From assembly GCA_964534625.1 (NCBI GenBank), contig CAZHRF010000016.1, forward strand, positions 1 through 23,515: a DNA stretch of 23,515 bases, read 5' to 3'. Position 1 is the stretch's first letter, and each line of letters starts with the position of its first letter. This DNA comes from an uncultured archaeon (lineage in GTDB: Archaea > Asgardarchaeota > Heimdallarchaeia > Heimdallarchaeales > Heimdallarchaeaceae). The notes below the pieces were generated by a model. The model made no database searches. It was given only the letters and a program-made list of their open reading frames with translations, and was not told where the DNA came from. Below, piece after piece: positions 19,034 to 23,515 of the stretch. The translations under genes and the position numbers were made by a program.

Positions 19034-19843
19034 ATGGAATCTATCACTATAATACCAATTAAATCAAAAAAAATAATTGAACCAACAGACGATTTAGTTA
19101 ATGTTTTATTAGACTCAATTAATGAGTGTGGTTTCACTTTGCAAAATAACGACATAATGGTAATAGCTAGCAAAGTTGTGTCTGTGGTTGAAGGACAAAT
19201 AGTTCGTTTTTCTGATGTTGTTCCATCACCCCTCGCAAAACAGCTCGCCAAAAAAGCTAAAATTCCTCCTGAATTTGCTCAAGTTATTTTGGAAGAATGT
19301 GAGGGTAGATATATTGGTGTTGTACCTGGCGCAATTACAACTATAACAGAACAAGGTCTATTAGCTAATGCTGGGGCAGATCAATCTAACGTTAAAGATA
19401 ATCAAATTATTATCTTACCTAGAGACAGTAAAAAATCTGCTAAATCCATCCATGAGCAAATTCTCCAAAAAACTAACCAATATACTGGAGTGATTATTGC
19501 TGATTCACGAACAATGCCCATGCATTTGGGAACAGTAGGATATGCGTTAGGCACCCATGGGTTTGAACCAGTTTTGGATGTAAGAGGTAAAAAGGATTTG
19601 TTTGGACGATCTATGCACATAACTACACGGGCAATAGCTGATCAACTTGCTACTTCAGCTGAATTGTTGATGGGTGAATCAAACGAGCAAATTCCTTTTG
19701 TTATAATTAGAAATTATCCTATTAAAATAATAGATGATAGTGAAGAGGTAGATATTAATTCTTTAATTCCTTCAGAAAGATGTATGTTTATTGGTCCTCT
19801 ACTGCCATGCATCGCTAATATAAGAGGTGAGGAGGTAATATAA
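19034..19843 (+). CDS. cofE: CofE-family gamma-glutamyl ligase (F420-0:glutamate ligase or FolC2-like folate glutamylase)
   Basis: DIMVIASKVVSVVEG, ANAGADQSN, GVIIADS, DLFGRSMHITTRAIADQLA..AELLMGE; TAATG overlap with folP. Confidence 0.85.
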   Translation: MESITIIPIKSKKIIEPTDDLVNVLLDSINECGFTLQNNDIMVIASKVVSVVEGQIVRFSDVVPSPLAKQLAKKAKIPPEFAQVILEECEGRYIGVVPGAITTITEQGLLANAGADQSNVKDNQIIILPRDSKKSAKSIHEQILQKTNQYTGVIIADSRTMPMHLGTVGYALGTHGFEPVLDVRGKKDLFGRSMHITTRAIADQLATSAELLMGESNEQIPFVIIRNYPIKIIDDSEEVDINSLIPSERCMFIGPLLPCIANIRGEEVI

Positions 19844-20742
19844 TGATTAACGGAAAACTAGGGGCTCTTTCTATTGGAGATAATTATCAATGTTTGATTG
19901 TTGGTGTAGTAAACATTTCTGATGCTTCTTTTTATAGTGGTTCAATTGCTTCTACCAAAAAAGAGATTGAAGAACAAACGCGTAAAATGATTGAGCAAGG
20001 GGCTAAATGTATAGATATTGGTGCTCAATCAACACGACCGATTCAAATATATGGGGGAGAAGGAAGAGTGGATGAACCAACTGAAGAGGAAATGATTAAG
20101 TCCGCATTAGATGTGGTTTTAGATATAACTAGTAGTTATCCTGAAGTAGAAGTTTCTATCGATACAATGCGTTCTAATGTAGCAAGAGTATCATTAAATA
20201 GAGGTATTAAAATAATTAATGATATCTCTGGATTAAAAAAAGATCCATTAATGGCTGATTGTATTGGTGATTTTGGTGCTTCAGTTGTACTTATGGCTGC
20301 TAAAAAAGAACCTGGTGATGTCTATAGATTAAGAGATATAACGACGGAGCTTCAAAAAAGTGTCAATATGGCTGAAAAAGCTTCTATAGCCCCAGAAAAA
20401 ATTACAATTGATCCGGGTATCGGTAGTTGGGAAGCTAGGGATTATTGCCATGATTATAATATAATTAAACACCTTAAGCATTTTAGAATACTAGAAAAAC
20501 CAGTTTATGTGGGAATAAGCAGAAAGACATCTATTGGTAAAATATTAAATGATGCACCCCCTGCTGAAAGATTGTATGGAAGTATTGGAGCTACCATTGT
20601 CAGTGTAATGAATGGTGTTCATGTTGTAAGAACACATGATGTTAAACCAACCCTAGATGCAGTTAGGGTGGCTGAAACTATAATTAACTGGGATAATGAA
20701 GGAGACTTAACTAAAAAAGTGAATGATAAACCACGAAATTAA
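19843..20742 (+). CDS. folP: Dihydropteroate synthase
   Basis: GVVN..SF, DIGAQSTRP, SIDT, INDISG, DPGIG, GISRK, RTHDV; GGAGGT SD at 19831-19836. Confidence 0.9.
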   Translation: MINGKLGALSIGDNYQCLIVGVVNISDASFYSGSIASTKKEIEEQTRKMIEQGAKCIDIGAQSTRPIQIYGGEGRVDEPTEEEMIKSALDVVLDITSSYPEVEVSIDTMRSNVARVSLNRGIKIINDISGLKKDPLMADCIGDFGASVVLMAAKKEPGDVYRLRDITTELQKSVNMAEKASIAPEKITIDPGIGSWEARDYCHDYNIIKHLKHFRILEKPVYVGISRKTSIGKILNDAPPAERLYGSIGATIVSVMNGVHVVRTHDVKPTLDAVRVAETIINWDNEGDLTKKVNDKPRN

Positions 20743-21576
20743 GATGATTACAACAGATAGAATATTTAATATGCTGTATAAAAGCGCTGTTTCTTTGTCA
20801 TATACTATTTTAATTTTATCTAAAATATTTTCTAATTTATTATCGATTGAAACTAAAAATTCTTTTTCTTCGTTTGTTTCAATGGTTTTTTCTTGTGATT
20901 GTTGTAATACGTCAATAAAGCCATGTAGAAGATTTTCATCTGATTCATCTATCTTCTGATGACTGAAACCTTGTAATTTTTTATGTAATATTGCCACTTG
21001 TTCGTTTGACAACTGTGGGATATTCCATCTGATTGTTTTATTAGATCCCATAAATGAAGATATGAAAGTGCTTTGATCATCAATAAAAACATCAAAGTCT
21101 ACAGCTTGATAGTCAATATCATTTATCATTCTAAAAAATTGTAATTCTAAATCATTTTTGTCCATAGTGGTATAATATCTTGAAGGATCAACAACAAGGG
21201 CAACTGCTTTTTGATAAAGATTTTGATAAACCCGTTGTGTTCCTTTATCAGTGCCACTAAGAAAACACCCATAACCAGGATGGCTATGTATCCACCCTAC
21301 AATGGTTTCATTGTCTCTCCCCCTCTTTTGAAGATCCTCAACAATTTGTATAAGCGCATTATCATCCATTACAACAAAGGTCGTAGTTTGTTTTTGTTTT
21401 CCTGTATCAAAATCGGTAATGATAAGTCTCTCTAAATCATCTTCATAGCCAATTAATACTCCTGCTGATTCTGTTGTTCTATCCACTTGATCAACAGCTA
21501 AGAACTTTGCTAAAGCAGTTGTGGATATCATAACCTCTCTTGTTTTTTTCATATCTATAGAATCATTGATGCTCAT
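20707..21576 (-). CDS. MPN+/JAMM metalloprotease (Rpn11-like) with helical linker and C-terminal transmembrane anchor
   Basis: E36 (ESAGVLIG) and GWIHSHPGYGCFLSGTD (H97, H99, S107, D110), ALVVDP; hydrophobic end ALLYSILNILSVVIILISWFIIHFFS. Overlaps the folP 3' end by 36 bp. Confidence 0.88.
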   Translation of the reverse strand: MSINDSIDMKKTREVMISTTALAKFLAVDQVDRTTESAGVLIGYEDDLERLIITDFDTGKQKQTTTFVVMDDNALIQIVEDLQKRGRDNETIVGWIHSHPGYGCFLSGTDKGTQRVYQNLYQKAVALVVDPSRYYTTMDKNDLELQFFRMINDIDYQAVDFDVFIDDQSTFISSFMGSNKTIRWNIPQLSNEQVAILHKKLQGFSHQKIDESDENLLHGFIDVLQQSQEKTIETNEEKEFLVSIDNKLENILDKIKIVYDKETALLYSILNILSVVIILISWFIIHFFS

Positions 21577-21594: not shown

Positions 21595-22800
21595 TTAAGA
21601 TTCATTCATTAACTCAGTAAAAAAAGGTTTTTCGATTAGAAATTTATATGTTAATTCTCTTAATAATACTAAATCAGGATGTTTTGGAGAAACATTCAAG
21701 TTTGTAATCTTGTCGAGATAATCCATCATTCCCCATAAGCCAAAATAATAGTCAATAGGAAAACCTTTGGGATACAATTCATCCAATGGAGGACAATTTA
21801 TCTCCCGTAAGTGGACATTATAGCCATTTAAAAATTGTTGTACGTCGCTAATAGTGTTAAGAAGTGATCTGTTCATTCTATATTCAAGAAAGACCTGTCT
21901 CCCAAAGAAAGTAGCAATATCTTCAAATCTGTCGTAACTACCTTCTAACCAAAAAGTGGGGTCAATTAGGGCTATGGTGATTATTTCATTGTTAGGTGTC
22001 ACACGGAGCATTAAATTACTCTGATGATAATCACCAAAACTATCGCATCCTCCTTGTGAAACTACTGACATGTCTTGTAGAACCTTTACAGATTCCATGA
22101 TAGGCTTTTCTTCTTTAGTACCACCAAAAACTGCAAGAACTAAACGCCTAAACATTTCTTCATAAACTTCTGTCATAACATTCCGTGGTCTCCCTCCATG
22201 AATAATAGCTAAAATGTAACCCGCCCAAAAACTTTTATTTTCTACAGTATTATTATCTTCATAATTTTGACCTGTTATGCCTTCATAGATAATATATGGT
22301 TGTTTATTTTGTGCTATTTTCTCATTTTTTAGATTAACATAAACATATCTTGGTATTTGAACTATTGACCTTGATGCAAATTTTTTTTCAAGCAGTGCTG
22401 TATTCTTTATCTCTGTTACAATATCCTCTCTATCTTGAACATATTTAATTGCTACTTTGCTTATATGCTCGTCATATTCGGATGAGTAAAATATATCAGT
22501 AACATATACTTCTCCAAATCTTCCTGTCCTTTTAACGTAAGAAATATCATTTATTGTAATATCTTGTACATCTTTACCTGTTTTTTTTCTTGCCTCATCC
22601 ACTAAATAATATTTAATAGATGAAGTTATTTCAAACATTGTATTTTTGTTAATAGCACTCATTACAGATAGTACTTCTTTTTTATTATTAAATTTTAAGT
22701 TAGTAAAACAACTCTCTAACCCAATCGTCCCTCTGGTATGGGTTAGACGTTGTATAATTGTGTTTAAAGGACTTTTTTTAAGAATTTCAACTAATCGCAA
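21595..22800 (-). CDS. Protein kinase-like fold phosphotransferase (APH/choline kinase-like)
   Basis: GRFGEVY Gly loop, VAIK, helix-C Glu (TEIKN), YEGITG, LAIIH, catalytic loop FGDYHQSN, ALIDP, EDIA. Start uncertain (TTG 22800 or a later Met). Confidence 0.72.
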   Translation of the reverse strand: MRLVEILKKSPLNTIIQRLTHTRGTIGLESCFTNLKFNNKKEVLSVMSAINKNTMFEITSSIKYYLVDEARKKTGKDVQDITINDISYVKRTGRFGEVYVTDIFYSSEYDEHISKVAIKYVQDREDIVTEIKNTALLEKKFASRSIVQIPRYVYVNLKNEKIAQNKQPYIIYEGITGQNYEDNNTVENKSFWAGYILAIIHGGRPRNVMTEVYEEMFRRLVLAVFGGTKEEKPIMESVKVLQDMSVVSQGGCDSFGDYHQSNLMLRVTPNNEIITIALIDPTFWLEGSYDRFEDIATFFGRQVFLEYRMNRSLLNTISDVQQFLNGYNVHLREINCPPLDELYPKGFPIDYYFGLWGMMDYLDKITNLNVSPKHPDLVLLRELTYKFLIEKPFFTELMNES

Positions 22801-22868
22801 AAACTTAATAAGCTTACGTAAATAGCAAAATAGAGAATCTTTGAATAACTATTTCACGTGTGCTTGCT

Positions 22869-23515
22869 ATGAATCAAAATGACAATCTTTCCAACAATTC
22901 AATAAGTGAGGAAATTAACAAAATAATTGAAATAAGAAATGACCTTCTAAACGACGGTAAGAAAGTACGCGATTTAGAGGATATAATAGATGATCTCGCA
23001 CAATTAAAATCTTTACCAGAATTCCATTTTGATAAAATCAACTTGAATCTACTTGTACAAAAATCATCAGACTTGGCTTCTCTGGAAGATGTTAATGATT
23101 CAAAGATGGATGTGAAAATACCTAAGATTAGTTGGTCTTCAGAAACTATAGCTAATGTATCCCAATTTATTTTTCATATTGCTACTTCAGAGAGTAAAAT
23201 TAGTCAAGATGAAAGATCTTCTGAAATGATGGGGACTAGAAACGAAATAGTAGGAGAACCTGTCGAAGAGCTAAGAAAAGAAATTACTGCTTTAGAAAAG
23301 CGAAAAATGTTCGAAGACAAAACTGTTGTTAAAAGGGAAGCAGAATTTGTGGATAGCGCTCTTGATATGGAAGAAAGGGAAATAATTAGAGATGTAGAAC
23401 CTGAAATAATATCTGAATTTATGCCAGAACTTTCATCCGAACCTGAAGTTACTCCCACACCCGAACCTGAAGTTACTCCCACACCCGAACCTGAAGTTAC
23501 TCCCACACCCGAACC
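22869..23515 (+). CDS. Acidic hypothetical protein with Pro/Glu/Thr tandem repeat, truncated at the window end
   Basis: Manual translation from ATG 22869 is open to the end: MNQNDNLSNNSISEEINKIIEIRNDLLNDG...EPEIISEFMPELSS(EPEVTPTP)x3EP. Absent from the ORF track, presumably because it has no stop codon in the window. Confidence 0.8.
   Translation, partial: MNQNDNLSNNSISEEINKIIEIRNDLLNDGKKVRDLEDIIDDLAQLKSLPEFHFDKINLNLLVQKSSDLASLEDVNDSKMDVKIPKISWSSETIANVSQFIFHIATSESKISQDERSSEMMGTRNEIVGEPVEELRKEITALEKRKMFEDKTVVKREAEFVDSALDMEEREIIRDVEPEIISEFMPELSSEPEVTPTPEPEVTPTPEPEVTPTPE
23437..23515 (+). repeat. Perfect 24-bp coding tandem repeat (CCGAACCTGAAGTTACTCCCACAC), at least 3.3 copies
   Basis: Units at 23437-23460, 23461-23484, 23485-23508 and partial 23509-23515; no spacers; encodes EPEVTPTP. 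Confidence 0.97.

Follow-up and report, generated by a model that had tools for sequence, protein, structure and literature searches.

Rpn11 (PSMD14) and CSN5 are soluble subunits of PCI complexes; they are held in them by C-terminal helical bundles, are paired with an inactive MPN- partner and need their partners for activity. AMSH (STAMBP) is a JAMM deubiquitinase of the endosomal membrane, where it acts in a ubiquitin-ESCRT setting, and it too is soluble, being recruited via MIT and ESCRT contacts. In haloarchaea, the desampylase JAMM1 is a stand-alone, soluble MPN+ isopeptidase that acts on SAMPs. To our knowledge, every characterised JAMM deubiquitinase is soluble. Direct anchoring is known from USP19, a tail-anchored deubiquitinase of the ER, and USP30, a membrane-anchored one of mitochondria, both of which have a cytosolic catalytic domain and one transmembrane (TM) helix. 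Asgard archaea, the closest known relatives of eukaryotes, possess ubiquitin-ESCRT genes, and reconstructions of the origins of eukaryotic membrane trafficking and protein quality control draw on their ubiquitin, RING and ESCRT genes. No description of an anchored JAMM was found in the searchable Asgard ubiquitin and ESCRT literature, and the public annotations of the anchored proteins discussed below read only "Mov34/MPN/PAD-1 family" or "hypothetical". The closest solved relative by sequence of the protein described here is CsRpn11 from Ca. Caldiarchaeum subterraneum (PDB 6fjv, 6fju, 6fnn), which has been experimentally shown to be a stand-alone ubiquitin-processing and deconjugating enzyme (PMC6043591). 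Its authors called it a "primordial soluble Rpn11", and its gene lies within a Ub-E2-E1-RING operon; the JAMM-1 cluster was placed far from Rpn11 (PMC6043591).

The window considered here, i.e., the whole stretch of 23,515 nucleotides that was analysed (G+C 32%), is contig C16 of a genome of 3.37 Mb that is 90% complete, and it contains a gene for an MPN+ protein with a predicted C-terminal membrane anchor (Table 1). This protein has a cluster mate with 91% identity and about 48 full-length orthologues of 277-294 aa (44-91% identical), and the close relatives among proteins carry the labels Candidatus Heimdallarchaeaceae, Heimdallarchaeota or Asgard group.

Table 1. Features of the MPN+ locus and its two neighbours, with positions in the window.
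Feature	Position	Strand	Basis and remarks
Tail-anchored MPN+ gene (anchor predicted)	20707..21576	-	ORF list and translation; ATG start, 289 aa, stop codon 20707-20709
MPN/JAB catalytic domain, residues 12-152	21121..21543	-	Pfam, PDB alignment, Foldseek
Catalytic Glu E36	21469-21471	-	translation; invariant in alignments
JAMM zinc/catalytic motif H97-S-H99-x7-S107-x2-D110	21247..21288	-	translation; invariant in alignments
Linker ("stalk"), residues 153-262	20791..21120	-	AF2 secondary structure; short helices, then start of long helix
Predicted C-terminal transmembrane anchor, residues 263-287, then 2 residues	20716..20790	-	hydropathy, orthologue conservation
APH-type kinase-fold gene, 355 aa	21598..22662	-	upstream, co-oriented, 18 nt from MPN start; likely ATG at 22662
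folP (dihydropteroate synthase)	19843..20742	+	Pfam Pterin_bind 2.3e-51; convergent, covers last 36 nt of MPN gene

The catalytic domain is matched by the Pfam JAB profile (PF01398) on residues 12-121 with an E-value of 1.9e-13 and 50.7 bits (cut-off 22.5) and by the Prok-JAB profile with 30.5 bits, and the Pfam scan of the protein returned no domain beyond these two. All five residues of the JAMM set (E36, H97, H99, S107 and D110) are present in canonical x7 and x2 spacing, and they are invariant in 18 orthologues (alignment A1) as well as in 19 anchored homologues sampled phylum-wide (alignment A3). A phmmer search against all PDB chains ranked CsRpn11 first (6fjv, 2.7e-21; alignment over residues 12-150), followed by Rpn11 from yeast, human and plant (around 1e-16) and CSN5 (1e-15 to 1e-11), with AMSH and Sst2 far weaker (1e-6) and haloarchaeal JAMM1 absent among the matches at E<=0.01. 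An AF2 model built from the 18 orthologues has a mean pLDDT of 69, divided into 76-89 for the MPN core, 39-76 for the linker and about 80 for the tail. Compared by Foldseek, it matches the MPN domains of Rpn11 with TM scores by target of 0.81-0.87 (rmsd 2.3-2.8) and CsRpn11 with 0.77-0.84, the match probability being 1.00 in both cases, and among the cluster models of the ESM Atlas it is matched best by eukaryotic PSMD14/Rpn11, the alignment of 197 residues spanning positions 12-252 and including the helices that follow the MPN domain. Motif, profile and predicted fold all assign the protein to the JAMM/MPN+ family, with predicted catalysis, and by sequence similarity it is placed in the Rpn11/CSN5-like subgroup, a class name that implies no membership of the lid or the signalosome. 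An earlier note on this DNA had claimed a complete catalytic JAMM motif and a resemblance to Rpn11/Csn5; the former can be read directly from the translation, and the latter is borne out by the PDB ranking.

Compared with CsRpn11, with which it shares the MPN+ fold and about 36% identity in the Foldseek alignment, the window protein differs by a linker of 110 aa, by its predicted TM anchor and by its position outside any ubiquitin operon. Eukaryotic Rpn11 and CSN5 have the same catalytic motif and motif flanks, whereas in the window protein a predicted lipid anchor takes the place of incorporation into a complex; no MPN- partner was identified for it, and the JABs read in its own genome (contigs C16, C72 and C94) keep a JAMM-type motif. 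Apart from the much weaker similarity to AMSH, no MIT domain was detected by Pfam, and we do not class the protein as AMSH-type. The working principle that we propose for it is that of USP19 and USP30 and, at endosomes, of AMSH; the two USPs, however, are cysteine proteases of the USP fold that occur only in eukaryotes and are thus unrelated to it in sequence.

The earlier note had also claimed a single C-terminal TM helix, and this claim held when it was evaluated by Kyte-Doolittle (KD) hydropathy windows and by conservation, on which our TM assignment is based. The only hydrophobic stretch of the protein lies at residues 261-289, where the 19-aa mean reaches 2.51, and the only window above 1.2 is at residues 260-289; the stretch comprises a hydrophobic helix of 25 residues that stops two residues short of the C-terminus. 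In the AF2 model, residues 235-288 form one continuous helix. All of the approximately 48 full-length orthologues from Heimdallarchaeaceae have a terminal window of 2.47-3.0 that ends 0-3 aa from the C-terminus, so the tail is conserved in position. The hydropathy scan detected no second hydrophobic segment and hence no signal peptide, and the protein has the layout of a tail-anchored protein, i.e., one predicted TM helix that lies no more than about 30 residues from the C-terminus, with neither a further TM segment nor a signal peptide. From these observations we infer that it is inserted into the membrane by its C-terminus with the MPN domain in the cytoplasm. The 36-bp overlap with the convergent folP gene is real, and the earlier note had considered an artefactual tail caused by this overlap, or one that is not conserved in orthologues. 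Neither is the case, as the tail is found in every full-length orthologue and is kept where the downstream gene differs; in Ca. Heimdallarchaeum aukensis, for instance, an unrelated gene lies downstream, without any overlap. A secreted protein of the PGF-CTERM type was likewise considered and rejected, since the signal peptide is absent.

The segment between the catalytic domain and the anchor, which had been described as a helical stalk, is helical in the AF2 model, but this part is poorly modelled (pLDDT of about 50-55) and is unconserved outside Heimdallarchaeaceae. A profile of linker and tail (A2, residues 150-289) was run on 400 Asgard genomes and on 1.84 billion protein representatives. 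It detected a single copy in 28 of 30 Heimdallarchaeaceae genomes, two marginal partial matches (E of about 1e-4) in the remaining 369 Asgard genomes, and five of the protein representatives. As judged from this profile, the linker sequence is specific to Heimdallarchaeaceae. The same result had suggested that the anchored design as a whole was an invention restricted to this family, a view that was overturned by a phylum-wide search that started from a weak early match, P0052, a protein of 233 aa with 40% identity over the MPN domain and a hydrophobic tail at its end.

With P0052 as the query, the 400 Asgard genomes were searched, ORFs were extracted (starting at the first Met) and their hydropathy windows were calculated; the family codes used for Asgard genomes are anonymous, and the organism names are the submitters' labels. 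Anchored ORFs with an intact JAMM set were obtained from 14 Asgard family codes (f1-f4, f7, f11-f16, f26, f27 and f33), including Ca. Odinarchaeum yellowstonii (WEU40565.1), Ca. Freyarchaeum deiterrae (WXG41015.1), a Helarchaeota MAG and further MAGs labelled as Odin-, Hod- or Promethearchaeota. The combination of MPN domain and TM helix, for which the earlier note had suggested a survey, therefore recurs far beyond the lineage of the window. These ORFs encode 217-326 aa, with linkers of about 50 to 140 aa. Their alignment has 18 invariant columns within the MPN domain, all JAMM residues among them, and contains no conserved stretch of 7-10 columns. Such a tail is absent from all 22 further MPN relatives taken from the protein database, which comprise CSN5, short proteins of about 160 aa and others. 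Four other families were covered by five near-complete genomes, among them the closed genome of Ca. Lokiarchaeum ossiferum, and none of the JAB ORFs in these ends in a hydrophobic helix; the absences rest on these five genomes, and family f6 was sampled by best matches only.

The anchored tails of different families are unrelated in sequence and are conserved in position and hydrophobicity, with a best window of 2.0-3.25 that always ends 0-6 residues from the C-terminus. This pattern fits a lipid anchor rather than a specific protein interface. It also bears on the possibility that the tail is not an anchor at all and instead forms a buried oligomerisation or partner-binding helix in a soluble complex, or the C-terminal sorting signal of a secreted protein. 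Within Heimdallarchaeaceae, the polar residue N271 together with Y267 and W282 is invariant in the tail helix and could mark helix-helix packing. A specific interface would, however, be expected to be conserved between families, and the stretches of 19-25 uncharged residues at the extreme end of every protein, at such hydropathy values, argue for a membrane helix; for secretion, the N-terminal signal peptide and a PGF-type motif are missing, and the ubiquitin machinery is cytoplasmic. We consider a non-membrane role of the tail very improbable.

A maximum likelihood tree of 68 MPN domains (143 columns, LG+C20 PMSF, unrooted, with three very long branches left out) places all 44 anchored rows, together with two anchorless rows from family f17, on one side of a branch with UFBoot 94 / SH-aLRT 90, which falls slightly below the star of the tree tool. 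The phylogeny that had been called for in the earlier note thereby recovers the anchored forms as one group that also holds the two f17 rows, a pattern most simply explained by a single gain of the anchor and its secondary loss in f17. The anchored group, the eukaryotic set (two sequences, one of the Rpn11 type and one CSN5) and six short metagenomic JAMMs are separated with 99/97 support from 14 other soluble Asgard JABs, which include the JAB of the E2-JAB-RING cluster in the window's own genome. On this tree the anchored forms are close to eukaryotic Rpn11 and CSN5; because the tree lacks a root and includes so few eukaryotic sequences, no specific sister relation to Rpn11 is claimed. That the anchored proteins constitute a single, vertically inherited Asgard orthologue group is well supported by these sequence comparisons, and so is the view of the tail-anchored Rpn11-like JAMM architecture as an old and widely inherited Asgard design.

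A search of the window's genome for ubiquitin machinery, another check raised in the earlier note, was positive. This genome encodes a ubiquitin ORF whose last two residues are GG, a second ubiquitin-like protein (Ubl) that ends in AG, four E2-fold matches and at least ten zf-RING_2 ORFs, six of which have hydrophobic segments and three of which are multi-pass (5-8 segments). There are two further, soluble JAB genes, which are located in an E2-JAB-(multi-pass RING) cluster and an E1-JAB-Ubl-E2 cluster. An ORF of 339 aa encodes an ArsA/Get3-like ATPase; this family matches 14 of 14 control genomes and is thus non-discriminating. Likewise, ubiquitin is found in Asgard genomes with and without the anchored form, so that their co-occurrence does not discriminate either. 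A USP profile had no match in the genome, a result of little weight given that the control also matched nowhere.

Since membrane-seated writers in the form of multi-pass RINGs exist in this genome, a membrane-tethered eraser would be coherent with the remainder of the system. We contend that the window protein is probably a cytoplasm-facing, membrane-tethered MPN+ isopeptidase of the Rpn11/CSN5 type for ubiquitin or ubiquitin-like tags that acts at the membrane. In the proposed arrangement, a cytoplasmic MPN+ zinc metalloprotease would be followed by a flexible helical linker and a single C-terminal TM helix, with 0-6 residues outside. It would most likely cut, as CsRpn11 does, the (iso)peptide bond that follows the Gly-Gly end of ubiquitin or a Ubl, and the anchor would keep this protease activity at the inner face of the cell membrane, where tagging by membrane-embedded RING ligases could be reversed and free ubiquitin released. 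It is from homology and genomic context that we infer zinc protease activity, ubiquitin as the substrate and action on membrane-proximal conjugates, and the control of membrane proteins by a deubiquitinase, as the earlier note had proposed, would be a possible role.

For an action of the anchored clade on ubiquitin, the strongest indirect evidence comes from Odinarchaeia. In two genomes of this class (98% and 97% complete, one of them the closed genome of Ca. Odinarchaeum yellowstonii), the anchored protein is the sole match to either JAB-family profile, and the ubiquitin profile has matches in both. The ubiquitin ORF of Odin ends in GG-SVKY, and because a four-residue extension follows the GG, this ubiquitin must be trimmed before activation, for which the anchored enzyme is the only JAB-family candidate, other protease classes being possible as well. 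In Caldiarchaeum, both tasks are united in one enzyme, as CsRpn11 trims pro-ubiquitin and deconjugates ubiquitin (PMC6043591).

Given that the sole Odin JAMM enzyme meets an extended ubiquitin, the Odin case suggests a general ubiquitin protease role rather than one confined to membrane proteins, and the enzyme may be a general ubiquitin protease merely seated on the membrane. More broadly, the protein could be anchored and yet serve as the general maturation and recycling protease of the cell for ubiquitin and Ubls, the membrane being a scaffold or a limit on activity and not the site of the substrates. The double activity of CsRpn11 agrees with such a role, and linkage of the anchored gene to membrane RING genes was not observed. 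In the genome of the window, on the other hand, no trimming is needed, since GG already forms the end of ubiquitin and AG that of the Ubl, and the two soluble JABs in their clusters could cover the general work; moreover, the anchor has been kept in 14 families, which argues that location matters. On balance we regard the general role as unlikely and retain the membrane-tethered isopeptidase acting at the membrane as our preferred reading.

Because the anchored design has been inherited across many Asgard lineages, putative ubiquitin removal at membranes would be older than eukaryotes, and with enzyme activity predicted, our data suggest that it predates them. If this is true, the eraser side of the ubiquitin system was already spatially organised at the membrane in archaea without known endomembranes. 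It can be speculated, and we put this forward as a doubtful extension, that anchored ubiquitin removal is an ancestral Asgard trait and the only JAMM route in Odinarchaeia, a counterpart of the eukaryotic membrane-side erasers of the AMSH, Doa4 and USP19 type that works together with membrane RINGs and possibly ESCRT, and that soluble Rpn11 and CSN5 could stem from a relative that gave up its lipid anchor and became part of a complex instead. The question can be tested directly, as the cytoplasmic domain is small and close to a crystallised enzyme, and candidate natural substrates such as the Odin ubiquitin with its extended C-terminus are encoded in the same genomes.

In 24 of 24 neighbourhoods examined, no ubiquitin, E1, E2, RING or ESCRT gene lies beside the anchored gene. 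In Odin, Frey and three other families, the MPN gene is preceded by a pair of proteins, c1 and c2 (about 400 and 250 aa), which had no match in Pfam, in the PDB sequence search or in the Atlas; this pair is absent from the window's genome, where the APH-type kinase-fold gene (c3) is the upstream neighbour, and hhalign revealed no relation among c1, c2 and c3. Conserved neighbours that are not ubiquitin genes could mean that the anchored MPN+ protease serves a non-ubiquitin target, such as a SAMP/Urm1-type tag, the AG-ended Ubl or a peptide linked to the neighbouring genes (APH-type kinase or c1-c2), and JAMM enzymes are indeed also employed as desampylases and in cofactor pathways. The neighbours vary by lineage, however, while the enzyme itself is conserved, and the MPN domain groups with Rpn11, CSN5 and CsRpn11 and not with the other Asgard JABs, which makes a target of this kind decidedly unlikely in our view, more so than the general ubiquitin role.

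The kinase-fold gene is a possible operon partner of the MPN gene. Orthologues that are 54-56% identical to it adjoin the MPN gene in three further genomes of Heimdallarchaeaceae (L004, L006 and, with the order swapped, L009), and in family f4 one is located a single gene away. A profile of the protein had no match among PDB sequences, and the designation as APH-type is due to fold search only, in which its AF2 model (pLDDT 75) was matched by Foldseek to the folds of APH, MTR-kinase and FN3K (fructosamine-kinase). Its invariant residues are G47, G50, K73, E84, D211, H213, N216 and D234, which correspond to the G-loop, the Lys, the Glu, the D-x-H-x-x-N motif and the second Asp.

The anchored MPN gene, which codes for an Rpn11/CSN5-like JAMM (JAB) protein with a predicted C-terminal membrane helix, is directly preceded in the same orientation by a gene whose product is predicted to adopt a kinase fold with all kinase catalytic residues retained. 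A Pfam search with this protein returned no match. Its start is probably the ATG at 22662, rather than the TTG of the listed 401-aa ORF, and a paralogue is carried on another contig of the same genome (see table). The adjacency of the two genes is conserved within Heimdallarchaeaceae, with the order swapped in one genome, and in a sister family (f4) the kinase-fold gene is likewise located near the anchored MPN gene. A 515-aa PilB/T2SSE-type secretion ATPase is encoded between them in two f4 genomes. Within the window, the kinase-fold gene is divergent from an ORF cut by the window end, with a spacer of about 200 bp.

Freyarchaeum and Odinarchaeum, together with three further Asgard families, show a different arrangement, in which two conserved co-oriented genes precede the anchored MPN gene. 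Their proteins, roughly 400 and 250 aa long, have no match in Pfam, PDB sequences or Atlas, and the pair is absent from the window's genome. Together with the anchored MPN gene they form a candidate three-gene module of unassigned function.

Features and their locations (L, Asgard loci; C, contigs of the window's genome)
Feature	Location	Strand	Remarks
Kinase-fold gene, 355 aa, unannotated	window 21598-22662	-	APH, MTR-kinase or FN3K-type fold
Kinase-fold paralogue	C116, about 400-1300
PilB/T2SSE-type secretion ATPase, 515 aa (f4)	L085:7562-9106; also L086		between kinase-fold and anchored MPN genes
ORF cut by window end	window 22860-23513	+	terminal tandem PEPEVTPT repeats
Two-gene + MPN arrangement	L095:4873-7685; L100:6961-9416; L104:1425-4542; also L093, L094, L096, L099
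E2 - JAB (244 aa) - multi-pass membrane RING protein	L002 = C72:4132-7476		AG-ended Ubl close by
E1 - JAB (357 aa) - 87-aa Ubl - E2-like	L003 = C94:1-2591
Ubiquitin ORF, Ca. Odinarchaeum yellowstonii	within L133:206-700	-	C-terminus GG-SVKY

The window's genome contains two further JAB genes, both within ubiquitin-type clusters. Lineages without the anchored form, including the Lokiarchaeum ossiferum family, encode soluble JABs of about 270-300 aa (L106, L107, L108, L125) whose C-termini have a conserved acidic motif, ...LEYDE, in common, and one of these (L108) clusters in the tree with the JAB of the E2-JAB-RING cluster in the window's genome. Two JABs of family f17 (L080, L081; about 300 aa) are nested in the anchored clade and have no hydrophobic tail; their anchor appears to have been secondarily lost or replaced. 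No JAB gene is present in the 700-bp stretch read around the Odin ubiquitin ORF, which is adjoined by an 81-aa RING-finger protein with its own C-terminus ...KHGG.
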